DNA from: Burkholderiales bacterium
GTDB taxonomy: Bacteria; Pseudomonadota; Gammaproteobacteria; Burkholderiales; SG8-41
Length of the DNA stretch: 33,400 nucleotides
Assembly (NCBI GenBank): GCA_035650035.1
Contig: DASRIK010000577.1
Location: 1 to 33,400, forward strand
Direction: 5' to 3'
The translations under genes and the position numbers were made by a program. Of this stretch, positions 491 through 25,022 are shown in pieces. Numbering within the stretch: the first letter of the stretch is position 1; the number at the start of each line of letters is the position of its first letter. Below the pieces are notes generated by a model that was not told the origin of the DNA, ran no database searches, and was given only the letters and a program-made list of their open reading frames with translations.

Positions 491-510
491 ACGCTTGTCT
501 GAACGAAACG

Positions 511-543
511 CGCCACGGGCTCGTCAGCGCTGCGCCCGTGGCG
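511..543. terminator. GC-rich hairpin between convergent genes (possible bidirectional terminator)
   Basis: CGCCACGGGC (511-520) is the exact reverse complement of GCCCGTGGCG (534-543), with a 13-nt loop. It lies between stop 490 (+) and stop 558 (-). There is no clean U-tract on the plus side and only CGTTTCGTT on the minus side. Confidence 0.3.
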
Positions 544-557
544 ATGTACCGGGCCGT

Positions 558-1796: not shown

Positions 1797-1862
1797 CTCT
1801 CGCGTCGCAATTGGCTGAAAGGCTCGATTTCGGCCGTTCGTCTCGAGACCTTCGACGGGTGC

Positions 1863-2933
1863 CTACTTCGGTCTCGGGCTTTCGAGCTCCGCGTCGGCGC
1901 GGGAGAGGCGGCCTGCGCGCACATCGGCTACACAGCGCGCCACGGCACGGGCGACGTTCCGCACTTCTTCCCACAGCGCGTGGTCGCGATCGAGCGCGTC
2001 GTGGCTCGTTGCATACGGCTCGTAATAGCCGATGTAACGATCGAGCCGCGCGTGAAAGCCCGCATCGATGAGCCCCATCCATTCGAGCCAGTCGGAGAGC
2101 GCGCGCCGCGACGCTTCGACACCTTCGACGTCACCGTGTACGACGACGCCGTAGACGCGGTCGGCAAGGTGTTTCGGATAATCCCAGCCGGCGAGCTCGA
2201 TCTGCTTGGCTTTGTGGGCGTCCTTCCCGGCTGTTCGGGTGGGATCCGGATTGCCGCCGTCGGCGCAGACGAGCCGGTCGATCATGAGCTTGAGCGGGCT
2301 CGCCACCTGGTACCAGTACACCGGCGTCAACAGGATCACGCCGTGCGCCGCACTCCAGCGCTCGTAGATCTCGGCCATCCAGTCGTTCGTCTGCCGCGTC
2401 GCATGATTGGGGTAGCAGCTGCACGGCCAGTGGCACAGCGGCATTGCGGTCGAGACGCATCCCTTGCACGGATAGATGCGGCGCAGCGGGTCCGACGTGA
2501 GGTGACTCAGGTCGAGCAGATCGGGTTCGATCCCTTCGGCGCGCAGTTGCTCGCACACCGTGCCGGACAGTCTGAACGTTTTCGAGATTTCGCCGGGGCA
2601 CGTGCCGTCGTTGCGCGAGCTTCCACAAATCACGAGCACGCGTGTCGGCGTCGACGGATCGCGCCGCCGTGCATCCGCGGCACGTATCTTTTCTCGCGTT
2701 TCGCGCCATTCGACCGAGAGGTCGTAGTTCGGGTCGGCGAACTCGGGCCCGGCTTTCTCGGTCATCGGTGCTTTTCGGCCTTCGCTGTAGGCCTCCCACG
2801 CTATTTTCTCCATGGCGTCGATGGCCGCGTCGTGGGCCCGAAATGCGGGATCGTAGAACTCTTGACGGAAGCGCCTGCTGAACTCTTCGCGCGACATGGG
2901 ATCCGTCGCCTGACCTTTACGCACCGATGTCAT
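1863..2933 (-). CDS. flavodoxin-like NAD(P)H-dependent FMN reductase / iron-sulfur flavoprotein family protein
   Basis: 356-aa ORF. Motifs are 'RVLVICGSSRNDGTCPGEISKTF', the Cys cluster 'YPCKGCVSTAMPLCHWPCSCY' and 'GVILLTPVYWYQVASPLKLMIDRL', typical of this flavoprotein family. Confidence 0.75.
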   Translation of the reverse strand: MTSVRKGQATDPMSREEFSRRFRQEFYDPAFRAHDAAIDAMEKIAWEAYSEGRKAPMTEKAGPEFADPNYDLSVEWRETREKIRAADARRRDPSTPTRVLVICGSSRNDGTCPGEISKTFRLSGTVCEQLRAEGIEPDLLDLSHLTSDPLRRIYPCKGCVSTAMPLCHWPCSCYPNHATRQTNDWMAEIYERWSAAHGVILLTPVYWYQVASPLKLMIDRLVCADGGNPDPTRTAGKDAHKAKQIELAGWDYPKHLADRVYGVVVHGDVEGVEASRRALSDWLEWMGLIDAGFHARLDRYIGYYEPYATSHDALDRDHALWEEVRNVARAVARCVADVRAGRLSRADAELESPRPK

Positions 2934-3086
2934 GGATTGCGCTCTCGATTCGGACTGCCGGTGACGCGGAGTTTACAACGGTCATTCGTACGATTGCCGT
3001 GCTCATCGCCCGATCAGAATGAATGTCCGGGGGCGCCGACGCGAATGCGTTTACGCTCCCGACGTCGAACCGACACGAGGTCGCAG

Positions 3087-3497
3087 ATGTCCGAAAGAAC
3101 GAAGGTCCCAGTTCACTACCGGCCGGCGTTCGCCTCGTCGGCTGCAAGGCGTATTGACAAGGCGTCGGTCGCCGGTACGATGAGAGCGACCACAAGACCG
3201 CTGCATTATCCTCGGATGCCAACTTACCGCGTCGTCATATTACTCGCCCTCCTGCCACTGCTTTCGTATTGCGCGAAAAGCACGGAAGACGTGGCGGCGT
3301 TCCAAGAGCGGCGCACCAAGTGCGATCACTTTCGCGGTGAAGACCCTTACAACAAGGACCGAGCACAGTTCATAGCGGAGCAACTGAAGAAGTACTGCGC
3401 CGGAACCGACGCAGAGCTCGCTCAGCTCAAGAAAAAGTACGCCGGAGATCACGCGGTGATGAATAGGCTGAACACCTACGAAGAACGCATCGAGTAA
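3087..3497 (+). CDS. small membrane-anchored or secreted protein (hypothetical), partner of the downstream PG hydrolase
   Basis: This is the 3' tail of ORF-track entry 1629..3497. ATG 3087 has an SD (GAGG 6 nt upstream). Alternative starts are ATG 3180 and ATG 3216; the last gives MPTYRVVILLALLPLLSYC-AKS, a signal peptide with an imperfect lipobox. The mature part is about 70 aa, helical, with 2 Cys. It is followed 24 nt later by the next gene, which has its own SD. Confidence 0.55.
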   Translation: MSERTKVPVHYRPAFASSAARRIDKASVAGTMRATTRPLHYPRMPTYRVVILLALLPLLSYCAKSTEDVAAFQERRTKCDHFRGEDPYNKDRAQFIAEQLKKYCAGTDAELAQLKKKYAGDHAVMNRLNTYEERIE

Positions 3498-3521
3498 CCT
3501 CGCAGCGCCACCGGGAGAAGC

Positions 3522-4343
3522 ATGACAACCATCTCCGCATCCGTTGGTAAAGGCGGCCGAAACCTGCCGCGCGACGTCGGCATAGTGCAGACATTGCTCA
3601 ACCGCCACGTTACGAAACTTGGACTCGCGGTTCTGAAAGTCGACAATTTTCCCGGGCAAAAAACAGTCGAGGCTATACAGACCTTTCAGCGGCGCGTAAT
3701 GAAGCTCAACATGATCGATGGACGAGTAGACCCGAACGGGCGTACGTTGCTCGCGCTCATCGGCACACCGGCCGTGAATACCGCTGCTTCTACAAAACTC
3801 AGCGGTTCGGCCTGGTGGCACGCGAATCAGGCCAAATTTCCAAACAGCGACTCGATCGCGGACCTTGCGCTGCCGTTCAGGGCAAACGTAGAGGCGTTCG
3901 TGGCCGCTCTCAAAGTCGCGGGCGCATCCGTGGACATCGCCTCAACGCTCCGCAACAAAAAACGCGCGTATCTGATGCACTACAGCTGGAAGATCGCAAA
4001 AGGGCTCATCCAACCCGCGGCCGTTCCCGGCGAGACCGGCGTCGACATCGTGTGGGACCACGGCGATATCGCTAAATCAAAGGCGGGTGCGCAGGAGATG
4101 GTCAGTTCGTTCGCCATCAAATTTCAGCCGTCTTTGACCTCGCTTCACCTGTCCGGCCTTGCCATCGATATGGATATCGACTGGTCCGCAACCCTTAAAA
4201 TCAAAAACAAGAACGGCCAGACAGTAGAGATCGCGGGGCCCGGAACCGGGGCAACCAATACAATACTCCACAGCGTCGGCGCTTCTTACGGAGTGCGCAA
4301 GCTGTTGTCGGACCCACCGCACTGGTCTTCCACGGGCCACTAA
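3522..4343 (+). CDS. peptidoglycan-binding domain + M15/LAS-family zinc peptidase (VanY/endolysin-like cell-wall hydrolase), no signal peptide
   Basis: 273 aa; SD GGGAG precedes ATG 3522. aa 15-80 ('DVGIVQTLLNRHV...FPGQKTVEAIQTFQRR...DGRVDPNGRTLLAL') match the PG_binding_1 pattern. 'SLHLSGLAIDMDI' gives the LAS H-x6-D zinc ligands (H209, D216), with a C-terminal 'PPHWS' (H267). 'STLRN' matches the M15 SxxR motif. Confidence 0.75.
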   Translation: MTTISASVGKGGRNLPRDVGIVQTLLNRHVTKLGLAVLKVDNFPGQKTVEAIQTFQRRVMKLNMIDGRVDPNGRTLLALIGTPAVNTAASTKLSGSAWWHANQAKFPNSDSIADLALPFRANVEAFVAALKVAGASVDIASTLRNKKRAYLMHYSWKIAKGLIQPAAVPGETGVDIVWDHGDIAKSKAGAQEMVSSFAIKFQPSLTSLHLSGLAIDMDIDWSATLKIKNKNGQTVEIAGPGTGATNTILHSVGASYGVRKLLSDPPHWSSTGH

Positions 4344-4401
4344 GTCCGTAACGCTACAACTGCTGTCGTCTCGCTCCGGGCGCGGGGCCCGCGCGCTTGT
4401 C

Positions 4402-5379
4402 TTACTTCGCGTCTTTGACGATCCCCGCTTTAGCCATGATCGTTTTGACGGTCTCTCGGCGCTCGTCGAACTTCTTCACGATCTCGCTCGGCGGGATGTA
4501 TTCCCAGCGCGCGTTGCGCTCGTTCACGAACTTCACGAACTCGGGATCCTTCACCGCTTTCTCGATCGCGGGCACCAGCACGGCCACGACTTCCTTCGGG
4601 AGCTTCGGCGGTCCCATCAAGAAGTTGGTGGATTCCCAGCTCACGTTGTAGCCGAGCTCTTTCAGCGTCGGGAACTTGTCGTACGGTGCCGGGGCACGCG
4701 CATCGCCAAGCGTCGCGAGGAACTTGACCTGCCCGGCGTCGATCATGCTTTTCGCCGAGCCGAGCGCGGCGACACCGAGCTCGGCATGGCCGCCTGCGAC
4801 CTGAGCGATCGTCATTGCGCCTGCACCAGGCTGCGGAATCGTGTTCACCTGGATGCCCGTGCCCGAGATCATCGCCATCGCGGCGACCCACCAGCTTTGG
4901 CCGACGCCTGCCGTGGAGAAGTTGAGCTTGCCCGGATTCGCCTTCGCGTACTGAATCGCGTCCTGAATCGTGTTGAGCGGCAGTTTTGTCTTCGTTGCGG
5001 AGACGACGATCGGGAAATACGTCGCGTAGCCGCCGAGCTGAGTGAAGTCGTGATAATCGAGCGGCGAGACGCCCTGAACCTTGTTCGTGATAATCGTCGC
5101 CGACCCCCAGCCGATCGTGTAACCGTCGGGTCGTGCGCCATGCAGCTCTCGATAACCGATGGAGCTGCCGCCGCCCGGTTTGTTCACGACCAGAATCGGC
5201 TGGCCGATCATCTTCGATACGCGCTCGAAGATCGGACGTACGAGCACGTCGCCATCCGCGCCGGCCTCGACCGCCACGATCGCAGTGATGGGCTTCACCG
5301 GGTAGCGGTCCGCAGCCTGGACAAGGCTCACGCCCGGGAGTGCGCACAGCGCAGTCAGCGCCCACAGTGTCTTTCTCAT
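4402..5379 (-). CDS. tctC: tripartite tricarboxylate transporter substrate-binding protein (Bug family)
   Basis: Start ATG 5379 has SD AGGAGGAG and gives the signal peptide MRKTLWALTALCALPGVSLVQA, then 'YPVKPITAIVAVEAGADGD'. Bug hallmarks are present throughout. ATGA overlap with the tctA stop (5376-5379). Confidence 0.9.
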   Translation of the reverse strand: MRKTLWALTALCALPGVSLVQAADRYPVKPITAIVAVEAGADGDVLVRPIFERVSKMIGQPILVVNKPGGGSSIGYRELHGARPDGYTIGWGSATIITNKVQGVSPLDYHDFTQLGGYATYFPIVVSATKTKLPLNTIQDAIQYAKANPGKLNFSTAGVGQSWWVAAMAMISGTGIQVNTIPQPGAGAMTIAQVAGGHAELGVAALGSAKSMIDAGQVKFLATLGDARAPAPYDKFPTLKELGYNVSWESTNFLMGPPKLPKEVVAVLVPAIEKAVKDPEFVKFVNERNARWEYIPPSEIVKKFDERRETVKTIMAKAGIVKDAK

Positions 5380-6914
5380 GATCTCTCCTCCTTTGGATTG
5401 AAGCCGACGTGTGATTCGTTTTGTGAAGGGTAGCGTTGCGCGCGATATTTCGCCACAAGCCGGTAGACGATGAAAGTACCCGCGCACGCGAGCAGCACGG
5501 AGGCGAGCGGTCGGCCCGCGATGAGCGTCACATCGCCTTTGAACATCAGCAGTGTCTGCCGCAGGCTGTTCTCCGTCGTGGGTCCGAGCACGATCCCGAT
5601 AATGAAAGGTGCGATGGGATAACCCCAGCGCCTCAGGAAAAATCCGATGACGCCCGCCGCGATCATCACCCACACGTCGAAGAACGCGTTGCGCACGCTG
5701 TAGACGCCGACGAGGCAGGTCACGCTGATGATCGGCAGCAGGATCTGAGGCCGGATCGTGGCGATTTTCGCGAACGCGCCGACGAGCGGGAGATTCAGCA
5801 CCAGCAGCATGAGATTCCCGATATACATCGCCCCAATGAAGGTCCAGAACACCTGCGGGTGCGTCGTAAAGAGCATCGGCCCGGGTTCGACGTTATGCAT
5901 GCGTAGCGCAGCGAGCATGATCGCCGACGGCGCGGCGAATGGAATACCGAGGGTGAGCAGCGGAATCATCGAGCCCATGACCGCACTGTTGTTCGCGGAC
6001 TCCGGGGCGACCACGCCTTCGACCGCGCCTTTGCCGAACTCCTGCGGTCGCTTGGACAGACGCTTCTCGACCGCATACGCAACGAACGTCGAAATGACGG
6101 TGCTCGGCCCGGGGAGCAGCCCGACGAAGAAACCCAGCACGGAACCGCGCAACGTTGGCGTAAGCGAGCGCTGAAGCTCTTCTTTGCTCGGATAGAGCTC
6201 GCGCAGACGCACGCGTCCGACCTGGGGCTTTACGTATTTCTGAATCGCGATGGTAAGGATCTCCGAAATGCCGAACAGACCCATCGCGATCGGCAGAAAG
6301 TCGATCCCGAGCATGAGCTTCTCGGTACCGAAGGTGAACCGCGGGTAGCTGTCCATCGGATTGACGCCGATCGTGCTCAGGAACAGTCCCAGCACGATCA
6401 TGAGCGCGCCTTTCAGCGGCGCGGCGGCGGAAAGCGCGGCGAGCAGCACGAAGGCGAGAATCATGAAGGCGAGGAACTCCGGCGGGCCGAACGAGAGCGC
6501 GGCATTGCCGAGAACCGGCGCGAGAAACTGAAGGCCGAGAAGCCCGAGCGTTCCCGCGACGAACGAGCCGGCCGCGACGAGCGCGAGCGCGGCACCGGCG
6601 CGGCCTTTGCGCGCCATCTGGTACCCGTCGAGGCATGTAACGACGCTCGCCGCCTCGCCTGGGATGTTGACGAGCACCGACGTCGTCGAGCCGCCGTACA
6701 TCGCGCCGTACCAGATGCCGGTCATCATGATGAGGCCGGTTACCGGCCCGTACGGAATGGTGAAAGGGAGAAGCAGCGCCATGGTCGCAGTGGGCCCGAG
6801 TCCCGGCAGCACGCCGACGATCGTGCCGATGAGCGCACCGACGAAGCAGGCGATGAGGTTGACCGCGGTGAACGAGTTGGCGAAGCCGGTCAGGAGAAGA
6901 TCGAGACCGGACAT
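5376..6914 (-). CDS. tctA: tripartite tricarboxylate transporter large permease
   Basis: 512 aa starting at MSGLDLLLTGF (ATG 6914). Polytopic, with 'GALIGTIVGVLPGLGP' and 'GIWYGAMYGGSTTSVLVNIPGE' typical of TctA. The longer track ORF to 7013 was rejected. Confidence 0.9.
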   Translation of the reverse strand: MSGLDLLLTGFANSFTAVNLIACFVGALIGTIVGVLPGLGPTATMALLLPFTIPYGPVTGLIMMTGIWYGAMYGGSTTSVLVNIPGEAASVVTCLDGYQMARKGRAGAALALVAAGSFVAGTLGLLGLQFLAPVLGNAALSFGPPEFLAFMILAFVLLAALSAAAPLKGALMIVLGLFLSTIGVNPMDSYPRFTFGTEKLMLGIDFLPIAMGLFGISEILTIAIQKYVKPQVGRVRLRELYPSKEELQRSLTPTLRGSVLGFFVGLLPGPSTVISTFVAYAVEKRLSKRPQEFGKGAVEGVVAPESANNSAVMGSMIPLLTLGIPFAAPSAIMLAALRMHNVEPGPMLFTTHPQVFWTFIGAMYIGNLMLLVLNLPLVGAFAKIATIRPQILLPIISVTCLVGVYSVRNAFFDVWVMIAAGVIGFFLRRWGYPIAPFIIGIVLGPTTENSLRQTLLMFKGDVTLIAGRPLASVLLACAGTFIVYRLVAKYRAQRYPSQNESHVGFNPKEERS

Positions 6915-6915
6915 G

Positions 6916-7413
6916 TCAGCTGGCGCCGAACAGGATGCCGCGCGGGAGATCGATGTAGAGCCATTTCTCGAAAACGAGATAGATGAAAAGCGCCGTTCCG
7001 GCAGCGATCGCAACAGGTTTGCGCCAACCTTCGAGCTTCATCGTCTTGCAGAACGCGAGCACCGCGAGACCGGTCACGAGCGCGTAACCCAGCAGCGGCA
7101 TCGTGAGAATCCACAGACAGAACGTAGCCGCCATCAGCGCAAGCGTTCTGCGTTGCGCTTTCTCGAGTGGCTGCGGGGCGGGTGGCGTGCCGATGTGTGA
7201 CGCGAACAGGATTGCCGCGAATATGCCGATCGCGCTGCCGACGAAAAATGGATAGAGGCCCGGGCCCGGACGGGCGATGCTGCCGAAGCCGTAGCCCCAC
7301 GAGATGTATGCGATCGCTCCGCCGATCGCGAGCAACAGAAGATCGACGGCGGCTTCCGCGCCGAGCTTGCCAGCGTGACGCACCTCTGATCTCTTTCTCC
7401 GAAGCGCGACCAT
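6916..7413 (-). CDS. tctB: tripartite tricarboxylate transporter small membrane subunit
   Basis: About 155-165 aa with 4 TM segments, located between tctA and the CoA-transferase. ATG 7413 lies inside a 24-nt repeated element, so GTG 7383 (VRHAGKLG...) may be the true start. Confidence 0.8.
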   Translation of the reverse strand: MVALRRKRSEVRHAGKLGAEAAVDLLLLAIGGAIAYISWGYGFGSIARPGPGLYPFFVGSAIGIFAAILFASHIGTPPAPQPLEKAQRRTLALMAATFCLWILTMPLLGYALVTGLAVLAFCKTMKLEGWRKPVAIAAGTALFIYLVFEKWLYIDLPRGILFGAS

Positions 7414-7420
7414 AGCGTGT
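7397..7420. repeat. 24-nt direct repeat, copy 1 (CTCCGAAGCGCGACCATAGCGTGT)
   Basis: 23/24 identical to 8663..8686. On the coding (minus) strand it reads ACACGCTATGGTCGCGCTTCGGAG and ends 14 nt upstream of GTG 7383. Confidence 0.85.
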
Positions 7421-7426
7421 GGGACG

Positions 7427-8644
7427 TCAGATCACGTTCCGCTCACGGAATCGTTCTATCTCCGTCGCACTGTAGCCGATCTCTTCCAGAACGCTTTCAG
7501 TGTGCTGCCCGAGCGCCGGCGCAACGCCGATGCGGGGCGGCGTCTCCGAAAAATGCCAGGGTGAGCCGTGCACCTTCAGTTTCTTGTCGTACTTCGGGTA
7601 TTCGACTTCCGTCACGTAACCGTTCGCGAGGACATCGGGATCGTTCGACGCTTCGAGGAGCGTGTTGATGGGCGCCGAAACAACGTCGGCTTTGCGCAGG
7701 GCCTCGACCCATTTGTCCCGCGGGCCTGTCGCGAACAATTGATCCAGTTTTTTGAGAAGCGCCTGGCGCTGCTCGTCCGACGCGATCACGACGCCCAGAT
7801 CGCCGAACCCGGCGCTCACCAGCGTGTCGTAAAAGCCCAGCGACGACATCGCGGCCTTCCACTTGGCATTGCCCACGAGCTGGAACACCATCGGCTTGCC
7901 ATTGATGTCGTTGAAGCTTGCGCTCATTCCAGGGCGTTCAGGCGTTCCGGTGATGCGCGCCTGACCTGTAACCGGATTGCGGTTGCGCCACATCGCGGTG
8001 GTGAGCGTCCAGCCCATGAGCCGGATTTGTCCGCCGAGCAGCGAGCAGTCGACCTTCTGGCCGATGCCGTGCGTGCGGGCGCAATGCAGCGCTGCAAGCA
8101 TGCCGCCGAACGCCAGGATCGCGCACGTCTCGTCGGCCACTGACACGATGCCCGTTTTGAGCGGCTGGCCCGGCGAGGAGTACGCTTCGGCGATACCGCC
8201 CAGCGCCTGCGCCATCGAATCGGTACCCGGCAGGCTCGCATGCGGCCCTTTCGGACCGTACGCCGAAATCGAGACGTACACGAGCTTCGGGTTGATCTTC
8301 TTCAGGTCCTCATAGCCGAAGCCATTCTTCTCGGCGGCGCCGGGGCGAAAGTTCTGGCCGAAGATGTCCGCGCGGGCCACGAGTTTGTACAGGATCTCGC
8401 GCGCTTCGGCGGATTTCATGTTGAGCGTGACGCTCTTCACGCCACGGTTGTTCGTTTCGAAAAAGATGCTTGGGAAACCGGGATAGATGCTGGAGGCGCG
8501 GGAGTTGTCGCCCTTGCCCGGCACTTCGATCTTGATCACTTCGGCGCCCAGATCGGCCATGAGCATGTAAGGAACGGTGCCGGCCTGTGCGGTGGAGCAG
8601 GCGATAACTTTGACGCCGTCGAGCGGACCACGTGGCTTTGCCAT
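7427..8644 (-). CDS. CaiB/BaiF family-III CoA-transferase
   Basis: 405 aa from ATG 8644 (SD GGAGG). The N-terminus 'GPLDGVKVIACSTAQAGTVPYMLMADLGAEVIKIE' is the classic family-III signature. It lies 13 nt upstream of tctB on the same strand. Confidence 0.9.
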   Translation of the reverse strand: MAKPRGPLDGVKVIACSTAQAGTVPYMLMADLGAEVIKIEVPGKGDNSRASSIYPGFPSIFFETNNRGVKSVTLNMKSAEAREILYKLVARADIFGQNFRPGAAEKNGFGYEDLKKINPKLVYVSISAYGPKGPHASLPGTDSMAQALGGIAEAYSSPGQPLKTGIVSVADETCAILAFGGMLAALHCARTHGIGQKVDCSLLGGQIRLMGWTLTTAMWRNRNPVTGQARITGTPERPGMSASFNDINGKPMVFQLVGNAKWKAAMSSLGFYDTLVSAGFGDLGVVIASDEQRQALLKKLDQLFATGPRDKWVEALRKADVVSAPINTLLEASNDPDVLANGYVTEVEYPKYDKKLKVHGSPWHFSETPPRIGVAPALGQHTESVLEEIGYSATEIERFRERNVI

Positions 8645-8662
8645 GGCGATATTCCTCCAATC

Positions 8663-8686
8663 CTCCGAAGCGCGACTATAGCGTGT
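8663..8686. repeat. 24-nt direct repeat, copy 2 (CTCCGAAGCGCGACTATAGCGTGT)
   Basis: 23/24 identical to 7397..7420. On the minus strand it reads ACACGCTATAGTCGCGCTTCGGAG, contains a TATAGT -10-like hexamer, and ends 19 nt upstream of ATG 8644. Confidence 0.85.
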
Positions 8687-8727
8687 CGGCGGCAACGTTA
8701 GACACATGCCGCCTGGTTTCCTCTAAG

Positions 8728-9213
8728 ATGCGCGAGATGCAACGCGCGACAAGGCTTCTCACTCTATGCGCCGTGGCAACATGCACGTTCGGACCGGGCA
8801 TGGTCCCGGCGGAGTCGGGCTCTCTGGCTATATCGCAAAGCCGTGGGGCCCTTCTTCGCGTCGGGCACGAGGGATTGGACGTTGACCGCGCGCTCAAGCG
8901 CTATTCCGGGATGATCACTGCGCTGGGTGAACCCGACGAGCAGGGACGTGTCTACTCGTTCCAGGTGAAGCCGCTGCCGGCGGGTTCGGGGTACGTGCCA
9001 AACGAGCTGCGCGGCTGGCGCCTCACGCTACTCGCAGGCCAGCGGTTCGCGAGCGTGTTCGAAGTGCAGAGCAATACCGAAGCCGAGATCACCGTCACGC
9101 CGCGTGATGGGCCATTGAACGGCATAGCGGTGCGCGATCTCTTTGTCGTCGAGCAGATCGCCGTCGAGCGTCGGCAGCCTGCTGACACAGCGGACTCGAA
9201 ATCGCAGTTGTGA
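8728..9213 (+). CDS. hypothetical secreted protein
   Basis: From ATG 8728 (or 8737) the product begins MREMQRATRLLTLCAVATCTFGPGMVPAES, a signal-peptide-like N-terminus. The remaining ~130 aa have no recognisable motif. No clear SD. The stop overlaps the next ORF's GTG (GTGA at 9210-9213). Confidence 0.5.
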   Translation: MREMQRATRLLTLCAVATCTFGPGMVPAESGSLAISQSRGALLRVGHEGLDVDRALKRYSGMITALGEPDEQGRVYSFQVKPLPAGSGYVPNELRGWRLTLLAGQRFASVFEVQSNTEAEITVTPRDGPLNGIAVRDLFVVEQIAVERRQPADTADSKSQL

Positions 9214-9218
9214 CGCGG

Positions 9219-9704
9219 ATGAAGCTCGTTGCAGCGCTTGCATTGTCGGTTGCATTGGTCGACATATCGAGCGCAGCCGCGCAAGGCAGCCGCATTCCCG
9301 CCGATGTGGTCGACGCATTTCATGCGGCCCTCCGCGCCAGGAACACCGCCGCCGCCTTATCACTGCTCGACCGCGGTCTCGTAGTGTTCGAGTTCGGCAC
9401 TGTCGACCCGACTGTCGAGGCTTACGCGTTCCAGCATCTGCCGTTCGACATGGACGTCGCCGCAGCGACTCAGTGGAAGCTCGAAACGCGGCGGGTGGGC
9501 GGTGAAGGCAGCGAGCGGTGGGTGCTGAGCACATACCGTGTTACGGGCAAGCACCGCGACGGCAGCCCCATCGATCTCACCACCCTGGAAACAGTGATCC
9601 TGCGCCGGAGCAGCGATCTCTTCCGCATCGTCCACTTCCACTGGTCCACGAACGATCCTGCTTTCCAGGCGCGCGCGCAGCAACAGCGTTCTCAGGGCAA
9701 GTAG
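9219..9704 (+). CDS. NTF2-like (SnoaL/DUF4440-type) protein with signal peptide
   Basis: MKLVAALALSVALVDISSAAAQ is a signal peptide. 'VVDAFHAALRARNTAAALSLLDRGLVVFE...' and the C-terminal 'FRIVHFHWS' fit the DUF4440/SnoaL-like pattern. The alternative GTG 9210 is coupled to the upstream stop. Confidence 0.6.
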   Translation: MKLVAALALSVALVDISSAAAQGSRIPADVVDAFHAALRARNTAAALSLLDRGLVVFEFGTVDPTVEAYAFQHLPFDMDVAAATQWKLETRRVGGEGSERWVLSTYRVTGKHRDGSPIDLTTLETVILRRSSDLFRIVHFHWSTNDPAFQARAQQQRSQGK

Positions 9705-9710
9705 ACGCAT

Positions 9711-11165
9711 TCACCCCACGATCGGCTGAGCGAGTATCCACAGACTCAACGTCGTGTAAGCCACCATCAGCACGACCATCGGAATCTGGCTTACGACCGC
9801 GGCGTAGCGGCTGCCGAATACGCGTAAGCCTTCGGTGTGTGCAAGCACAACCGCGATAACGTGGCCGATCACGATGATCGTGACAGCGCTATACCAGAAA
9901 ACGTATGGACTCAGGATGCCCAGATCCACTTTATATTGGGCGGTGCCGAAGAGGTCCCACCCCCAACCGAAGGGATCGGAGACGAGCGGAATGATGAACT
10001 GGCCCGCGGTCACCAACAGAGAGAAATAGTGCGACAAGTGGTATGCGACAGCGATCGGAACGAGCGTCAGCACGAAGGAACAGGCGGCTTTGCTCGCGCT
10101 CACATCGCGCCGTGCGAGTCGCACCATCACCCAGCTCGTGAGCCAGAAAACCGCCACAAACGCCAGCGCGAAGCCGACGAGTGCAGTCGTCTCGATCACT
10201 TGTGTCTCATCGAATCCCCACTCCGAAAGTTCGAACAGCGCTGTCGATGCCATGCGCGACTGATGCACCACCGTTATCATGCGCTGGTTCAGTGCTGTTT
10301 CGAGAAAACCGTCGAACGTGACGGACGCGAGCATCAGCAGCACGAACGCGAGGAAGGACATGCTGACCGGTTGCCGCGTGATCAGGCCGGCGCCGGGGAA
10401 CCGCACGTTGAGCTCGCGTGGCGTAGCGGCGAGTGGCGCAAAGCGCGCGAGTATGCCGAACACAATCGAGAACGCCTCGCCTTTGGCAAGCCATACCTGT
10501 CGACCAAAGAGCAGCATGCCGGTCCAGGTGACGCCCGCATACGCGAGCATCGCGCACGCAAGATAGCGCGGCACATCGTTCCGCTGCCATATCAGCTCCG
10601 CCCAGGCAAAACATAGAAAGAGCGCCACGCCCGGCCACACATCCAGCCACGGCGGATAAGGCAGTCGCGGCGCACGCTGTCTACCGCTGTTGAGGCGCGC
10701 GAAGCCGCGCTCGCCCCACTCGAAGATCGTGCGCAGGGGGTTCACGAGCGCCCACAGGTCGCCGCCCAACGCGCAGATGAATGCGAGGCCAACCCACCAC
10801 ACCACCCAGATCATCGTTGGAGCGAGATTGACGTATGGATCCTGCGCGCCGAGCAAGCCTGCAAACGCCGTCAGAACGAACACTACGACAGCCAGAATAC
10901 GTACAGCGCCGACCGTCACCGGATGCGCGATCCAGCGCACCGCCGCGAATCGCAGCAGATCGAACTGCGGCCATCCCGCGGCGATGCTTCGCTCGCGCAC
11001 GAACAGTGCGATCACCACGAACGTGAGCACGATTGTTGCGCCAGCTCCCGTGAGCCAGAGCCATAGTGGCAGTGGCAGATCGAACCGCTGACCGAAGCCA
11101 TGCGCTGCCGCGGGGAGGGACCACGATGTCAGCGCAATCGCCGCGACGAGCCGCGCCACACTCAC
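9711..11165 (-). CDS. polytopic inner-membrane protein (about 12 hydrophobic segments), unknown function
   Basis: The proposed GTG 11165 overlaps the stop of the upstream cupredoxin-like gene (GTGA). The product begins VSVARLVAAIALTSWSLPAAAHG. It contains many TM-length hydrophobic stretches. The track ORF extension to 11891 was rejected. Confidence 0.7.
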   Translation of the reverse strand: MSVARLVAAIALTSWSLPAAAHGFGQRFDLPLPLWLWLTGAGATIVLTFVVIALFVRERSIAAGWPQFDLLRFAAVRWIAHPVTVGAVRILAVVVFVLTAFAGLLGAQDPYVNLAPTMIWVVWWVGLAFICALGGDLWALVNPLRTIFEWGERGFARLNSGRQRAPRLPYPPWLDVWPGVALFLCFAWAELIWQRNDVPRYLACAMLAYAGVTWTGMLLFGRQVWLAKGEAFSIVFGILARFAPLAATPRELNVRFPGAGLITRQPVSMSFLAFVLLMLASVTFDGFLETALNQRMITVVHQSRMASTALFELSEWGFDETQVIETTALVGFALAFVAVFWLTSWVMVRLARRDVSASKAACSFVLTLVPIAVAYHLSHYFSLLVTAGQFIIPLVSDPFGWGWDLFGTAQYKVDLGILSPYVFWYSAVTIIVIGHVIAVVLAHTEGLRVFGSRYAAVVSQIPMVVLMVAYTTLSLWILAQPIVG

Positions 11166-19920: not shown

Positions 19921-20943
19921 CTATAGAAGCGCAGGCATCACTTCGCGGGAGAAGAGCTCCATCGAGCGCAGCACGCGGGCCTGGTCCAGGTCGCCGAACC
20001 AGAAGCTGCAGTTGAAATGCGAGATGCCGACGAGCGCCTGCACGCGTTTGATCTGCCGTATGCAGGTCTCGGGGGTGCCGATCACGAGATAGCGCTCGAG
20101 CAGATCGTCGACCGCGGGCTCCGCGTTCCCGGGCACCGCGATCGCCTGTCCGTTTTCCACACGCTCGTAGTTGTTGCGCAGGCTCAGCGTGACGCGCATG
20201 TTCCAGCGCGCGTGTTCCGCGGCTTCCCGCGCATCCGCTTCATCCTTCGTTACGTACACGGCCCGTTGCACGCCCACGAGCGGCCGCTTTCCGGTTGCCG
20301 TTTCCGCCGCCATCCTGTTGAAGATCTGCCCGAACTCCGCCAGGCGTTCGACAGATACGCCGAACCCGCCGGTGAGCACGTTGAGGCCCCGGCGTGCCGC
20401 TGCTTCGATCGAGTATTCGCTTTGCGCAGTCACCCAGACCGGCGGGCGCGGCTTCTGCACGGGCTTGGGATAGATCGACGTCTCCGGAATGTCGAAAACC
20501 TTGCCGTGGTAGCTGAAAGGCCTGCCTTCGAACGCTTTCAGCAGAATGTCGAGCGACTCGTCCCAGCGGCTTCCGGAATCGAGCTTTAGACCGAAGCGCT
20601 CGAATTCGTAGCGCTGATAGCCGCGCCCGAGACCGACGTCGGTGCGTCCTCCGGAGAGCACGTCGAGCGTCGCGATCTCTTCCGCCACGATGAGCGGATG
20701 GTGCAGCGGAACGACGATAACCGCGGTGCCGACGCGAAGCCGCGTGGTCTTCGCCGCGATGTAACTGGCGAGTTGAAGCGGCCGCGAAAGATATCCGTAG
20801 GTCGAGAAATGATGCTCCGCGAGCCACGCGTTGCGAAAGCCGAGCGCCTCTGCGGCCTGCGCCTGCTCGATCGCCCGCGCGTAGAGCTCTTCGGAAGAGC
20901 GGGCCGATGGAGACTGCATGAGCAGGAACGTTCCGATGTCCAT
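19921..20943 (-). CDS. LLM-class (luciferase-like) flavin-dependent oxidoreductase
   Basis: 340 aa from ATG 20943 (SD GGAGG). The N-terminus is 'MDIGTFLLMQSP...AEALGFRNAWLAEHHFSTYGY'. The longer track ORF to 21108 was rejected. Confidence 0.85.
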   Translation of the reverse strand: MDIGTFLLMQSPSARSSEELYARAIEQAQAAEALGFRNAWLAEHHFSTYGYLSRPLQLASYIAAKTTRLRVGTAVIVVPLHHPLIVAEEIATLDVLSGGRTDVGLGRGYQRYEFERFGLKLDSGSRWDESLDILLKAFEGRPFSYHGKVFDIPETSIYPKPVQKPRPPVWVTAQSEYSIEAAARRGLNVLTGGFGVSVERLAEFGQIFNRMAAETATGKRPLVGVQRAVYVTKDEADAREAAEHARWNMRVTLSLRNNYERVENGQAIAVPGNAEPAVDDLLERYLVIGTPETCIRQIKRVQALVGISHFNCSFWFGDLDQARVLRSMELFSREVMPALL

Positions 20944-21095
20944 CGGGCCTCCTTCGGCCGTTACGCGGTCGGGAAACGATAACCTGCGGACCTGCGCCAA
21001 GGCAAACGCGATGACAGAGAGCCGTTCGGCCAACAAGCCGATACCGAGCTTCTGTTTTAGCGGCACAATCTGGGGGGAATTGTAGGGGAGCTCTA

Positions 21096-22802
21096 ATGGC
21101 TGAAACAAAGCCGGCGAAACGCCGGAGGTGCTCTGTTGGTTCGCTCTTCAGTCGCAAGTCGGCGCATGGAAGTCGGCCGTGGATGCTCATTTCAGTGAGC
21201 CTCCTGCTCGCCGGCTGCCAGGCGATGTACCTGCACGACCCCTCTAGAGCCAAGACCGCCGCCGAGGCGAGGAAAGCACTCGCGACCGTTGACACGGCTG
21301 CGCTCACGAAGGTCGAGCAAGCGAACCTGAACCGGCTTCTGGCCGAAGAGCTCAAAAGCCTGCGGGCACGGGCACGAATCGATTCGGACCTCGCGCTTCT
21401 CGAGATCGCAGATAACGAGCAAAACGTCGCGAGACATTACGTGAGACTTTCCGCGATCGTGGAGGAGCGATTCGGCACCGCCAAGTTCGACGTTCTCGCC
21501 CAGCGGCGCTTCGATCAAATACAACTGGAGGCGGATCGTGTGACGGCTGCGCACGCGAGAAGCGCTATTACGCGATTGAAGATCGCTGCGCCGGACTGCG
21601 GCCCCGACATGCCGCCCTTCGAGAAACTGTCTGGCGCGCAGGGCGTGGACACAAAAACACAGCTGGTCGCGCAGCTCGCGTATAACCGATACCTTGCCGC
21701 GTGCAAGCGCATGCTTGCAGACAGCCGCAAGCCGGATCCCGCCGGCGGCATGCTGCGGGCGGCGCAGGAGGAGGCAAGCAAGGCACGCGAGGCGCTGAAG
21801 AGCGACCAGGACAAGGCCGCGAAGGCGCAGAAGGCGTTGACGAGCGCTCGCACCGAGTACGCAAAGGCTGTCAAAGATCGGCAGAAAGCCGGTGAGGCTG
21901 GTGCCGTGGCCAGGAAGGCGCTCGAGGACAAAGCAAAAGACGTCCTGGACAAGATTCAAGCGCTTGAGTCCGCCAGCCCGGCCGCGGCAAACCACGAAAA
22001 AGTCGGCGCGCTTGTCGAGGTGCTTTCGGCCGCCGCAGGCGGCAAGGTCGAAACGACGAACGAAAATCTTGCGCCGGCGCTCATCATCGCGAAGCGCGTG
22101 CCGTCGCTCGTTGGTACGATCGAGCAAATCGAAGCGTTACGCTCGGCGCCTACCGTGTCCAATCTGGTGATCGCATTGAATCACCAGGTGCTGGCGGCCG
22201 AGCTCGATGCAAGGCTCGCCTCGATGCGCGAAGAAGAAGTGACGCTTCTGCAGGAAAAAGTAAGAGTCCTCGAACACGAGGCTTCATTGTGGCGTGCATT
22301 CAACGATCAGTTATGCAATCTTGCCCTGTTGGGGAGTGCCGCGAACCACCCGTCCACGACGTGTGAAGCGATCACGTTTCAGCCCGCGCCGGACAGCGGC
22401 ACCGAGACGGTGACGTGCAATATCCGAGTGTTGAGGCCCAACGGACCAGAGGAGAAGAGCATCCCCAAGTGTGTGCTGAGTCGCTCCTGGAAAGCACTGT
22501 TTTCGGATTCCAGCCTGAGCACAGCATCGCGACGCGCGCTATACGAGGCTGCGGTTGCATATCTCAACGCCCGAAACGCGGGCAACAGAGCGTACGAATA
22601 CGACTTCAAGGTGGTGAATCACAGACACCGGACCTCCCTCGAGCTGCGGGAAGCGGCGCTGCGCCAGTGGAACAACATCGTGGCAGTGCCGGTCGAGCAG
22701 CTCGACGCGTACTACGCGAGCGGCATCAAGCCCGCCGAGCTTGCCGACTTATTGGTGAAAGCGCTCGGCCTCACGGCGATCGCGATAGGAGTTGCGCAAT
22801 GA
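21096..22802 (+). CDS. large coiled-coil lipoprotein, unknown function (module gene A)
   Basis: 568 aa; SD GGGGAG lies 5 nt before ATG 21096 (alternative ATG 21183). Lipobox LLLAG-C41. There is a long K/A/E/Q-rich helical region, four Cys in the C-terminal ~150 aa, and a hydrophobic tail LGLTAIAIGVAQ. Confidence 0.75.
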   Translation: MAETKPAKRRRCSVGSLFSRKSAHGSRPWMLISVSLLLAGCQAMYLHDPSRAKTAAEARKALATVDTAALTKVEQANLNRLLAEELKSLRARARIDSDLALLEIADNEQNVARHYVRLSAIVEERFGTAKFDVLAQRRFDQIQLEADRVTAAHARSAITRLKIAAPDCGPDMPPFEKLSGAQGVDTKTQLVAQLAYNRYLAACKRMLADSRKPDPAGGMLRAAQEEASKAREALKSDQDKAAKAQKALTSARTEYAKAVKDRQKAGEAGAVARKALEDKAKDVLDKIQALESASPAAANHEKVGALVEVLSAAAGGKVETTNENLAPALIIAKRVPSLVGTIEQIEALRSAPTVSNLVIALNHQVLAAELDARLASMREEEVTLLQEKVRVLEHEASLWRAFNDQLCNLALLGSAANHPSTTCEAITFQPAPDSGTETVTCNIRVLRPNGPEEKSIPKCVLSRSWKALFSDSSLSTASRRALYEAAVAYLNARNAGNRAYEYDFKVVNHRHRTSLELREAALRQWNNIVAVPVEQLDAYYASGIKPAELADLLVKALGLTAIAIGVAQ

Positions 22803-23407
22803 AAGCGGTGAAGATGCTGATCACGGCCGCAGTGGCTGCTGTAATGGTCGGCTGTGCCACGCCGAGTGCCGTGTATGAGCTCGCGGACAAGAGCTCGGCC
22901 AATGCAGCCCTGTTCGGACAGCGTCTGGGCACGCTGGGCACGCAAAGCCGTGCACTGGCCGAGAAACGAGCGGCTCATGTCGCCTCGATGGATGCCTTCA
23001 ATGCGTCCATGCAGGCCGATTATCAGCGCGACCTCGCAATTACACGCAGGGCAGGAGCGGGGGACGCGGCGAAGCGGCTGATCGATGACCTGTCATCGTT
23101 CGTGCAGGAGCTCGAACGCATCGAGAAAAGCGGACAGTTATCGGAAGCTGCGCGGCGTCAGGAGCTGATGAACAGCTATGTGGCACTCGAGCCGAATACG
23201 GCGGCGCTCCGAAATGTAGCGAACATGTTAACGGCGCTTGCTAACCAGGAGAGTCGGGCTGATCGCGCGAAGTTCCTGGCCGACTTTGCCGCGCAGGTGC
23301 ATCGCGAAGCGCAGGTGCTGCTCGAAAAAGACGAGGCCTCGAGTAAGCACGCGACTCAACTGCTCGAGCACATAGGGCAAAAGCTCACGCCGGAAAGCAA
23401 GAAATAG
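22799..23407 (+). CDS. helical lipoprotein, unknown function (module gene B)
   Basis: 202 aa. ATG 22799 overlaps the stop of gene A (ATGA); SD GGAG is 8 nt upstream. MKAVKMLITAAVAAVMVG-C19 is a lipobox. The track ORF start at 22415 was rejected. Confidence 0.75.
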   Translation: MKAVKMLITAAVAAVMVGCATPSAVYELADKSSANAALFGQRLGTLGTQSRALAEKRAAHVASMDAFNASMQADYQRDLAITRRAGAGDAAKRLIDDLSSFVQELERIEKSGQLSEAARRQELMNSYVALEPNTAALRNVANMLTALANQESRADRAKFLADFAAQVHREAQVLLEKDEASSKHATQLLEHIGQKLTPESKK

Positions 23408-23429
23408 CCTTTCACGCAAAGGAGGTCAT

Positions 23430-23849
23430 ATGGCTACCGCGGACGTTCTCGAAGCGGCTCACCCGAAGGACCCGGAACTACCGCTCGCCGCCGCCATGGT
23501 CGAAGTGCTGCTCGCAGAGCACGCACAGGTGGTGGCGACGGTAAACAAGGCCCTTGAGAACAATCCAAGCGCGGACGACCGACGTGCGCTGCAAGGGAAG
23601 TTGATTGCGCTGAAGAACCGGGAAGACGCGCTTGTCAATGCATTGATTCAGCTCGATGCCGCCGGGCGGGATATTCCGACGCCGTCCGACGAGATGGTGC
23701 AGGAGCTCGCAAAGCTGGCCGAAGACGTGGAGCGGGCGACGAATCAGCGGCTTGCCGCCGCCGAGGCGCTCGGACTCGCCACGCAGTTCGTGACATTGGC
23801 GAGCGATGTTCTCACCGCCTTCAAGATTCCGGACGGGCCGCGAGCATAG
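23430..23849 (+). CDS. small all-helical cytoplasmic protein, unknown function (module gene C)
   Basis: 139 aa with a strong SD (AAAGGAGG, 4 nt before ATG 23430). It has no signal peptide and a heptad-like composition. Confidence 0.7.
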   Translation: MATADVLEAAHPKDPELPLAAAMVEVLLAEHAQVVATVNKALENNPSADDRRALQGKLIALKNREDALVNALIQLDAAGRDIPTPSDEMVQELAKLAEDVERATNQRLAAAEALGLATQFVTLASDVLTAFKIPDGPRA

Positions 23850-23867: not shown

Positions 23868-24584
23868 TCAAGATCGTCGCAATCGTGGGGTCGCGCGCTT
23901 CTCCCGCTCGATTTTCGGTGTCGGCTGGCCGGACCACGTCATTCGGTACGCGCCGCCCCGTCGAACGTTCGCGACGACTGCGGGCCTGAAGCACGCGAGA
24001 TTCGTGCCGCGCGGCCGGCGTGTGCTCGGATAGATGATGCCCACCGAGCCTTTTTCCATGAGCCGCGCGGCGAGGCGCTGAGAAGGCGCGTAGCTCGACG
24101 GGTCTACGCATGACTTGAATCGAGGATCTCTTCTGATGTCGTGGAACTCGTTCGTGAAATCGGCGAGGAGCGCCTCGTAGGTGACGCTGTCCTCGAAGTA
24201 GCCGATCTCCCGATACTCGACGCTCTTGTGAAAAGCCACTTCCGCGAGCGCCGTCTCTTCCTCGAACGAGCAGTACCACGCGCCGCGCTCGGGGCCGTTG
24301 AAGCGGCTGCCTTGCGGATGCGCATACGTGAACGCTGCGTTGACGAGGCCGGCGTTGGGCACGCCGAAGACAAGCTCGTCGACACCGATGCCGGGCAGCA
24401 GACCGCGCTGGCCGCGCAGCCGCTCGTTGGTGGCGTTGTCCAGCTCGAAAAGATCCGCAAGATGCGCATCGTCCTCCGAGATCCCCGTGAGGACCGAATC
24501 TTCCCGCATGGCAAAGCGCGACGGCAGCAGACGGTACGTGTCGAACTGCCGCAGTCGGGTCGTGCGCGGAAGCGGCGCGCTCAC
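23868..24584 (-). CDS. RES-domain toxin (NAD+-targeting type II toxin family)
   Basis: 238 aa. 'HPQGSRFNGPERGAWYCSFEEETALAEVAFH' supplies the conserved R and E. 'SVGIIYPSTRRPRGTNLACF' supplies the conserved S. It starts 9 nt downstream of the antitoxin gene. Confidence 0.9.
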   Translation of the reverse strand: MSAPLPRTTRLRQFDTYRLLPSRFAMREDSVLTGISEDDAHLADLFELDNATNERLRGQRGLLPGIGVDELVFGVPNAGLVNAAFTYAHPQGSRFNGPERGAWYCSFEEETALAEVAFHKSVEYREIGYFEDSVTYEALLADFTNEFHDIRRDPRFKSCVDPSSYAPSQRLAARLMEKGSVGIIYPSTRRPRGTNLACFRPAVVANVRRGGAYRMTWSGQPTPKIEREKRATPRLRRS

Positions 24585-24593
24585 CGAGGTTCC

Positions 24594-25022
24594 CTAGCCG
24601 CCGCGGCGTGCGTCGAGGAGCTTACGCACGGTCTGCATCGCGACGAGCCCGCCGCCGATCATGTATGCGAGCGGGGTCCCGCCACCAAAGATCGTGTTCG
24701 TATTCGGGAGCTTCACCCACTGGTCGGCGAGTTTCTCGCCATAGAGAATGTGCAGCGCCTTGTAGATCCCGGTGAGATAGGAAATGCGCATGATGCGATC
24801 GACGTCGAGCACGCGATCCGGATTCTTCTTCCAGTCGTAGTAGGCGCTGCTCGAGAGTCCCCCAAGCAGCTCGCGTGCGTCCTCGTCGCGGATCTTCCAT
24901 CGCTCGATCATGCGGAAGAAGCCGCGCAGCGCCGAGCGCGACAGGCGTTCACGCTCGCTTTTCGAGCTGAGATCGGCGATGCGAGGCAGCTCGAAGCTGC
25001 TGGAAGGATAGGCAAGCCCCAC
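24594..25022 (-). CDS. Xre-like antitoxin with C-terminal DUF2384 (MbcA/ParS-type) toxin-binding domain
   Basis: 142 aa. GTG 25022 is preceded by SD AGGAG (8 nt). The C-terminus 'IFGGGTPLAYMIGGGLVAMQTVRKLLDARRGG' is the typical DUF2384 ending. Confidence 0.85.
   Translation of the reverse strand: MGLAYPSSSFELPRIADLSSKSERERLSRSALRGFFRMIERWKIRDEDARELLGGLSSSAYYDWKKNPDRVLDVDRIMRISYLTGIYKALHILYGEKLADQWVKLPNTNTIFGGGTPLAYMIGGGLVAMQTVRKLLDARRGG

Follow-up and report, generated by a model that had tools for sequence, protein, structure and literature searches.

An orphan three-gene module for two predicted lipoproteins and a small helical protein, co-inherited in soil and rhizosphere Proteobacteria

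Three tightly packed genes in a Burkholderiales genome raise the question of what kind of system they encode, and which of their neighbors belong to it. The genes lie in a 33,400-nucleotide (nt) stretch of contig DASRIK010000577.1 (assembly GCA_035650035.1), hereafter the window, where they occupy positions 21096–23849 of the forward strand. Genes A and B encode predicted lipoproteins, gene C encodes a small protein, and a RES-Xre toxin-antitoxin (TA) pair lies next to them. An initial annotation, made from the sequence alone, described the trio as a tightly coupled envelope operon of no recognized family and attached weight to the neighboring TA pair. Our analyses indicated that A, B and C are one co-inherited unit without a characterized relative, that the TA pair is independent of this unit, and that the encoded proteins may form a membrane-tethered periplasmic complex.

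The genes themselves were as first described. The listing of open reading frames (ORFs) and a reading of the sequence identified the ribosome-binding sites, lipoboxes, ATGA overlap and cysteines reported earlier (Table 1), and the tight coupling of the operon was borne out by the 4-nt overlap of A and B, the position of C only 22 nt downstream and the recurrence of the trio in related loci. The start of A is secure, since no alternative in-frame start (ATG, GTG or TTG) precedes M30, and use of M30 itself would leave no basic n-region ahead of the lipobox.

A word-indexed protein search identified eight relatives of A, four of B and four of C, none of which had a name or a Pfam domain. Every contig encoding the eight A relatives carried the complete trio, with A of 521–568 amino acids (aa), B of 188–219 aa and C of 117–143 aa. 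An exhaustive HMMER search with an eight-sequence A profile retrieved 569 representatives of 50%-identity clusters at E <= 1e-3 (288 at E <= 1e-10 and 81 at E <= 1e-30), most of them full length at 500–580 aa, and a look-up of the A cluster names returned either "hypothetical protein" or nothing. A scan of 185,579 species genomes, using patterns that reach close relatives only, gave two matches, both metagenome-assembled genomes (one Burkholderiales and one Polaromonas), and a scan of metagenomes gave 28 further loci. The window sequence, or DNA near-identical to it, was found in many rhizosphere and soil metagenomes.

When 40 sequences were searched with hidden Markov models of A, B and C, A and B were adjacent in all 40 and C followed B in all 33 that were long enough, the other seven ending within B or less than about 135 nt past it. 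The order A-B-C was thereby found colinear in about 35 distinct loci, that is, in every related contig with room for it, so that the co-occurrence on which the idea of a module depends was present in every related locus of sufficient length. A 4-nt ATGA or GTGA overlap joined A and B in 39 of the 40 sequences; in the apparent exception, L005, B likewise starts within ATGA and its lipobox is normal, the contig being frameshifted after that, and the overlap is thus kept in 40 of 40. The spacing between B and C ranged from -11 to +51 nt. Remote A relatives were accompanied in the same way, as next to P0061 (E 1e-60), P0038 (E 2e-82) and P0117 (E 7e-24) the gene overlapping A encodes a B of about 205 aa and the third gene a protein of about 120 aa, and in the contig of P0115, which stops 130 nt past A, a B-like prolipoprotein begins 2 nt after the A stop codon. 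The GC content of the loci was 0.49–0.72, which argues that the module crosses wide taxonomic distances.

The three genes showed the marks of real, constrained coding sequences. The ratio of nonsynonymous to synonymous substitution rates (dN/dS) was 0.07–0.45 for A, B and C in all informative pairs, including 0.2 for A against L003 and 0.15–0.36 for C, and variants in environmental contigs fell at third codon positions in 11 of 15 cases in A and in eight of nine in B. Together with the recurrence of the trio, these data indicated that the genes are real. Pairwise identity matrices over 20 loci were strongly correlated (r = 0.94 for A-B and 0.93 for A-C; none of 2000 Mantel permutations reached the observed values), and the mean identities were nearly equal at 0.34 for A, 0.36 for B and 0.32 for C. 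This correlated and equal divergence indicated that A, B and C travel together at one pace, which fits subunits of one machine better than a toxin with a fast-evolving immunity partner. As to expression, contigs from four rhizosphere and sediment libraries labeled RNA-Seq (X25–X28) gave a depth of 2–4 over parts of all three genes, similar to the neighboring genes; this is a weak hint, as carry-over of DNA is possible.

Searches for known relatives supported the earlier statement that none of the three proteins belongs to a recognized family, as there was no significant match in Pfam, NCBIfam, PADLOC or PDB profile searches. Scans of A, B and C against the first three of these returned coiled-coil noise only, the best hits in PADLOC-DB v2 having E-values of 0.0046–0.43 and lying on coiled-coil stretches. 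In Pfam, neither nine A relatives that were divergent or longer nor the homologues of B (27) and C (22) gave anything consistent, and the same held for 36 A tails. Against PDB sequences, the only matches of the A profile were to coiled coils of the myosin and tropomyosin type, at E-values of at least 0.007, the C profile matched nothing, and a profile of the A tail matched only Sss1 (E 3.5). Foldseek with a structural model of A found no match at E <= 0.001 in PDB or BFVD, returning generic long-helix proteins only (best PDB E 0.045; template modeling (TM) scores no higher than 0.23 in PDB and 0.28 in BFVD). Alignments of A-B, A-C and B-C with hhalign gave no sign of paralogy among the three proteins, and no description of such a module was found in the literature. 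Based on the absence of a characterized relative for all three proteins, in a module that is large and strictly conserved, we regard it as categorically new, both as a family and as a system.

What the proteins might do is best approached through A. Both A and B have an N-terminal signal peptide ending in a lipobox of the pattern [LVI][ASTVI][GAS]-C and are, by sequence, lipoproteins, with lipid processing predicted; the near-invariance of the lipobox cysteine across the family agrees with their earlier designation as such. In A the lipobox is LLAG-C41, leaving a predicted mature form of about 527 aa. C41 was invariant in A alignments A1 and A3, near-invariant in A2 and near-invariant among 58 A homologues, and the strict lipobox pattern was present in 99 of 121 A homologues, most of the others showing variant lipoboxes by eye. 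Position +2 after the lipobox cysteine is Q in the window and Q, A, S or G in the family, almost never Asp. Besides C41 and a cysteine at position 12, within the signal peptide, A has cysteines at 168, 203, 407, 423, 441 and 459. Among the 58 homologues C41 and each of these six were at least 90% conserved, and the cluster of four (407–459) was invariant in A1 and A3 and at least 90% conserved in A2. The six conserved cysteines argue for an oxidizing, extracytoplasmic location of A, in which up to three disulfides may form. Apart from the signal peptides and the tail of A, a Kyte-Doolittle (KD) scan revealed no hydrophobic segment in mature A or B.

An AlphaFold2 model of A, built on an eight-sequence alignment, had a mean predicted local distance difference test (pLDDT) score of 74.7 and a predicted TM score (pTM) of 0.64, and was of low confidence in the first 56 and last 40 residues only. 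The body of the model is an up-and-down bundle with long helices at residues 67–106, 131–160, 218–265, 354–413 and 476–529. A short beta insert, at about residues 421–456 with its strands at 427–456, sits at the hairpin tip between the last two long helices and contains three of the four clustered cysteines. In this model A is a rod-like all-alpha lipoprotein with a small Cys-rich beta insert. The initial annotation had proposed hundreds of residues of coiled coil in A, which was not borne out by the model, as the predicted fold is an intramolecular bundle of helices of 40–60 residues and not one long coiled coil.

The most conserved stretch of the A family, above every other part of the protein, is its C-terminus. 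Its consensus is W-x-N-L-V-x-x-P-x-x-Q-L-x-A-Y-Y-x-x-G-I-K-P-A-E-I-A-D-L-I-V-K-A-L-G-F-T-A-I-A-I-G-V, followed by zero to three residues, and A of the window ends in the hydrophobic tail LADLLVKALGLTAIAIGVAQ. The KD hydropathy of this tail over 19 residues was 1.92, level with that of the B signal peptide, and the family median was 1.68, with 56% of homologues at or above the threshold of 1.6. Its Eisenberg mean hydrophobicity was 0.61 and its hydrophobic moment 0.19, a low value which indicates that the tail is not an amphipathic surface helix, and in the Eisenberg plot 88 of 121 A homologues fell in the membrane region, not in the surface-helix region. In the AlphaFold2 model the tail was unpacked from the body, with pLDDT below 50. 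Based on a predicted lipid at its N-terminus and a membrane-type helix at its C-terminus, mature A is probably held at both ends.

A C-terminal sorting signal of the PEP-CTERM, GlyGly-CTERM or LPXTG type was considered for the tail and rejected. Such signals combine a signature motif, a transmembrane helix of about 20 residues and a basic cluster, often with a cognate sortase gene nearby. In A, the hydrophobic run is followed by zero to three residues, no more than one of which is K or R, and no sortase-like gene was found in the flanks examined.

B has the lipobox MVG-C19, which would leave 183 mature residues, and C19 was invariant in 27 homologues. A conserved block, C-[AQS]-T-P-x-x-V-x-x-L-A-[ED]-K-T-[SA]-A-N-[AV]-G, starts at this cysteine. 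The AlphaFold2 model of B, from a four-sequence alignment, has three long helices and is of low confidence (pLDDT 47). An alignment of 22 C homologues indicated three helices, a conserved N-P-S turn and an invariant proline, P85. The highest 19-residue KD hydropathy of C is 1.45 and its net charge is -9; neither a signal peptide nor a transmembrane segment was found in its hydropathy profile or sequence, in agreement with its first description as a small helical protein with no export signal.

Several loci departed from this common pattern. Three copies are damaged or reflect assembly errors: in L005 (1966–2060) B is frameshifted just past the lipobox; in L008 (11566–11917) B ends after 82 residues near the contig end, with an insertion sequence (IS) integrase upstream; and in L039 (1–512) A is split over two reading frames. 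A distant subfamily, represented by L040 (5807–8690; the same as L041), has an A of 504 aa whose tail ends in IGAGVNK and which lacks the four-cysteine insert; it keeps C168, C203, the tail, B and a C-sized gene, and the C profile misses that third gene. A 75-aa gene follows C in L040, and its designation as an antitoxin would be a guess from sequence alone.

The 1134-aa protein P0038 (L011, 10001–13405) was examined as a true domain fusion and rejected, as the A portion still has an AGGAGG, an ATG and a lipoprotein signal peptide of its own. In this contig an upstream gene for a protein of about 590 aa, with hydrophobic segments near both ends and no Pfam match, runs in frame into A. In L029 (4492–6024) the same upstream protein is encoded by a separate 510-aa gene that ends 35 nt before A. 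The upstream protein may be a fourth component in one subfamily.

The surroundings of the module are collected with its own features in Table 1. As first reported, genes for Bug/TctC binding proteins and catabolic enzymes lie on both sides of it in the window. A mechanically called minus-strand ORF (19921–21108, 395 aa, TTG start) overlaps the start codon of A; in the near-identical contig L007 this ORF was called as a 340-aa luciferase-like monooxygenase, equivalent to window positions 19921–20943, and with that gene call the divergent intergenic region before A is 152 nt long. A scan of these 152 nt revealed no sigma-70-like promoter, and across 23 loci no common upstream promoter motif was found by eye or, for sigma-70, by scan.

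Table 1. Features of the A-B-C module and its neighbors in the window, and genes flanking the module in other loci (positions in the latter are those of the respective contig).
Feature	Position	Strand	Description and basis
Shine-Dalgarno sequence of gene A, GGGGAG	21085–21090	+	5 nt ahead of ATG; sequence reading
Gene A	21096–22802	+	568-aa prolipoprotein, ATG start; ORF listing, AlphaFold2 and family search
Signal peptide of A, aa 1–40	21096–21218	+	Basic n-region, h-region MLISVSLLL, lipobox L-A-G-C41
Cys-rich insert of A, aa 407–459 (C407, C423, C441, C459)	22314–22472	+	Alignments and AlphaFold2 model
Hyper-conserved C-terminal region of A, aa 521–568	22656–22799	+	Family alignments
Hydrophobic membrane-type helix, last ~20 residues of A	22740–22799	+	Hydropathy
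Gene B	22799–23407	+	202-aa prolipoprotein; start codon within ATGA overlap with A stop
Lipobox of B, M-V-G-C19, Cys codon	22853–22855	+	Sequence reading
Shine-Dalgarno sequence of gene C, AAAGGAGG	23418–23425	+	Sequence reading
Gene C	23430–23849	+	139-aa acidic protein, 22 nt after B; ORF listing
RES toxin	23868–24584	-	238 aa; Pfam RES 2.9e-32
Xre/MbcA/ParS-type antitoxin	24594–25022	-	142 aa; Xre_MbcA_ParS_C 3.6e-7
L014 upstream flank	347–8574		Septu PtuA (466 aa, 1e-110), PtuB (277 aa, 1e-30), 639-aa protein without Pfam match, 715-aa patatin-like phospholipase
L001 flank			Patatin, DUF900 hydrolase
L009 flank	7282–9771		Amidase_2 with PG_binding_1; also STAND-metallophosphatase, HipBA
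L010 flank	5818–6426		VanY/M15 peptidase; also DinG-like helicase
L008, L021 flanks			IS integrases
Flanks of other loci			ABC and MFS transporters, oxidoreductases, TonB-dependent receptor, hydrolases

The RES-Xre genes form a complete type II TA pair, tail to tail with the module and 18 nt past the C stop codon. The weight first placed on this neighbor was not supported, as the pair adjoins the module only in the window lineage (L007 and L012) and is absent from the approximately 33 other distinct loci. The closest relatives, 58–61% identical, lie between Bug/TctC genes and have no RES-Xre. This restriction to one lineage indicated that the pair does not belong to the module; its appearance is that of a separate insertion, lying between A-B-C and the next TctC gene.

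An all-against-all BLAST of the flanking ORFs found no conserved flanking or fourth gene. Among about 17 loci with usable flanks, about a third carried defense, TA or mobile-element genes. The mixed flanks of the module (Table 1) are those of an accessory gene set in variable regions and not of a dedicated defense-island resident. A defense or envelope-stress role is possible, if only weakly hinted at. Searches of phage and plasmid collections with A of the window gave no match, nor did plasmids with three divergent relatives or viral contigs of IMG/VR with three subfamily profiles.

Some neighbors recurred or were otherwise of note. Patatin or other alpha/beta-hydrolase genes occurred in L001, L010 and L014, and in L009 the Amidase_2 gene comes after genes for a hydrophobic protein of 299 aa and a secreted, Cys-rich protein of 266 aa; the presence of cell-wall enzyme genes beside some copies could be chance. 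A 653-aa HExxH protein (VIAHETTHALLDG) is encoded downstream of the module in the otherwise unrelated contigs L001 (6370–9855) and L028 (1848–2520). In L028 it starts 76 nt after C. In L001 a gene for a 506-aa protein with the motif HEHKDH comes after it, and neither of the two proteins has a Pfam match. In L020 (2208–2633) a DUF5675 protein is encoded 60 nt after C.

We tentatively favor, at somewhat less than even confidence, a reading in which A and B form a membrane-tethered periplasmic complex, possibly bridging the envelope. The simplest arrangement, by analogy with phage unimolecular spanins, would have A anchored by its lipid to the outer membrane and by its helix to the inner one. A-B-C would be an autonomous, horizontally mobile operon that draws the components of this membrane-anchored complex from three orphan families. 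After Sec export, A would be lipidated at C41, oxidized with up to three disulfides and folded into a helical rod of about 9 nm, which, anchored in both membranes, would act as an envelope-bridging strut. B, made in fixed proportion through translational coupling, would be the obligate lipoprotein partner of A, serving as cap, regulator or co-anchor. The cytoplasmic, co-evolving C may handle A or B before export, or may couple the complex to the cell interior. The role of the complex would be that of an accessory envelope trait, plausibly protection against, or a response to, envelope attack.

A familiar parallel is Braun's lipoprotein Lpp, a 58-residue trimeric coiled coil that is linked to peptidoglycan by its C-terminal lysine. 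Lpp is, as A would be, a helical outer-membrane lipoprotein with its other end fixed to a second envelope layer, and acts as a tether or ruler. However, A, ten times its size, is accessory and not a core component, and its C-terminal end is a hydrophobic helix whose final residue varies among Q, K and R. To our knowledge, the combination of a lipid anchor and a C-terminal membrane-type helix is otherwise found only in the unimolecular spanins (u-spanins) of phages. Our hypothesis is that A works like a doubly anchored envelope tether.

Several observations weigh against the favored reading. A 60-residue helix is about 9 nm long (1.5 Å per residue), which is shorter than the usual 20–25 nm width of the periplasm, so that bridging would need extended linkers. 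The KD threshold of 1.6 is reached by only 56% of A homologues. The uninterrupted hydrophobic run of the tail is just 12–16 residues long, the conserved D551 and K555 lie immediately ahead of it, and it is followed by no more than one basic residue; based on the last of these, the tail could instead be a one-leaflet anchor, an oligomerization helix or a docking site for B. In addition, a cytoplasmic C has no obvious contact to a complex that would expose two residues in the cytoplasm, the low-confidence model of B gives no usable structure, and an envelope element with a purely structural role would not usually be distributed in this patchy, accessory way.

The features of the tail lead to the alternative that we consider the best of those competing with a bridging complex, a possible if rather doubtful one, in which A and B are lipid-anchored to the same membrane as a periplasmic scaffold and the tail is either a pilotin-like docking element for B or the core of an A oligomer. 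The short hydrophobic run with its preceding D/K pair would suit this arrangement, as would the small-residue pattern A-x-G-x-x-A-x-A-x-G, which is suited to helix-helix packing, the unpacked state of the tail in the AlphaFold2 monomer, and the translational coupling, which suggests stoichiometric A-B contact. In concept it resembles the pilotin-secretin pairs (OutS/PulS), whose small partner, a helical lipoprotein, docks onto the C-terminal helix of the larger envelope protein, although the module has no secretin. The mean hydrophobicity and low moment of the tail, however, are membrane-like and not interface-like, and C is left unexplained. B itself was rejected as a pilotin, as its match to OutS (E 0.0022) was confined to residues 6–53, the signal peptide and linker.

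An envelope-level conflict system, for anti-phage defense or superinfection exclusion, in which A and B block or sense phage entry or damage and C is a cytoplasmic effector or regulator, we consider unlikely. It would account for the patchy accessory distribution (two matches in 185,579 species genomes, scanned with close-relative patterns, versus 569 metagenome clusters) and for the variable insertion sites, and there are defense, TA or mobile genes near L014 (Septu PtuA/PtuB, patatin), L009 (STAND-metallophosphatase, HipBA), the window copy (RES-Xre), and L008 and L021 (IS integrases). However, the flanks carry mostly metabolic or transport genes, A, B and C have no PADLOC match and no nuclease, NTPase or other effector domain, and the searches of phage, plasmid and IMG/VR collections revealed no relatives. 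In addition, the equal and moderate rates of the three genes show no arms-race signature.

Still less probable is a lipoprotein membrane toxin, in which A would damage membranes by its C-terminal helix, B would deliver or release it, and C would serve in the cytoplasm as an immunity or holding factor. Many immunity proteins are, like C, small, acidic and helical, A has its terminal hydrophobic helix, and lytic-enzyme genes lie near some loci (patatin in L001 and L014, DUF900 in L001, Amidase_2 in L009, VanY in L010). Against this, conservation in A is highest at the C-terminus, the reverse of what a polymorphic toxin shows; C has no higher evolutionary rate than A and no transmembrane segment, whereas such immunity proteins are normally membrane-embedded; and there is no secretion system linked to the module and no resemblance to a ClyA or colicin fold. 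The comparison with ClyA and the tripartite toxins (AhlABC, SmhABC, Hbl, Nhe) is suggested by three adjacent genes for helical proteins and, in A, by long hairpins of helices, one tip of which bears a small beta element. However, the beta insert of A is polar and Cys-rich and not a hydrophobic tongue, A and B are predicted to be lipid-anchored, and A, B and C are not paralogues. A pore-forming toxin of the ClyA family was rejected on these grounds together with the Foldseek result (best E 0.045, TM <= 0.23), the negative Pfam and PDB profiles and the lack of any hydrophobic segment but the tail.

A domesticated spanin-type phage lysis module, whose fusion or disruption of membranes would serve programmed lysis or the release of vesicles or tailocins, seems very improbable despite the topology that A may share with u-spanins. 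Gp11 of phage T1 combines an outer-membrane lipoprotein signal with a C-terminal transmembrane domain, and the periplasmic domain of u-spanins is mainly predicted beta sheet, with no periplasmic cysteine (PMC6139136). A resembles them in its N-terminal outer-membrane lipoprotein signal (lipobox, Q at +2, no Asp) and its C-terminal hydrophobic helix, although the tail is borderline as a transmembrane segment. In sequence and fold, u-spanins show no similarity to A. U-spanins are small, T1 gp11 being about 130 aa, whereas A is about four times that size, with some 527 mature residues that are almost all helical and six conserved cysteines.

The abundance of long helices in A is closer to the i-spanins. 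Two-component spanins pair an i-spanin with an N-terminal transmembrane domain and an o-spanin lipoprotein with an unstructured periplasmic domain (PMC6139136). The Rz/Rz1 pair of phage lambda shares with A and B a helical periplasmic protein beside an outer-membrane lipoprotein, overlapping genes and conserved cysteines. However, A has a lipobox in place of the N-terminal transmembrane domain of an i-spanin. Rz1 is small and proline-rich, with its periplasmic domain unstructured, whereas B is helical, of about 180 residues and not proline-rich. Peptidoglycan-hydrolase genes adjoin the module in L009 and L010, but no holin or endolysin is conserved beside it; the module lies in chromosomes and outside any lysis cassette, and searches of 50,697 phage genomes and, with three subfamily profiles, of IMG/VR gave no homologue. 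In addition, spanin systems have no counterpart of B or C, which always accompany A. Based on context, size, secondary structure and cysteine content, we rejected the view that A is a spanin.

That A-B-C and RES-Xre are one five-gene system, as their tail-to-tail position 18 nt apart in the window might suggest, has next to no probability, since the two units are convergently transcribed and the comparative data already refute it, RES-Xre being present only in L007 and L012 and absent at all other loci, including the 58–61% identical relatives.

Orphan envelope operons are common, and the module may equally be an ordinary accessory periplasmic scaffold. What is new here is a set of three co-inherited families with no annotation, no Pfam, NCBIfam or PADLOC model and no solved relative, of which A also has no detectable fold match. 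Among orphan operons of soil and rhizosphere Proteobacteria A-B-C is one of the clearer cases, and with only three genes it is tractable for testing. Should its role instead lie in conflict, the module would join the few known defense systems that use lipoproteins to act at the envelope. As a long shot, we speculate that A is the first cellular, non-phage, envelope-spanning family anchored at both ends and controlled by a partner lipoprotein and a cytoplasmic factor, which, as an accessory envelope machine of a new type, would couple or conditionally fuse the membranes for defense, controlled lysis or vesicle release in soil Proteobacteria. If it is true that A bridges or remodels the envelope, the module would represent a new class of component for Gram-negative envelope biology.

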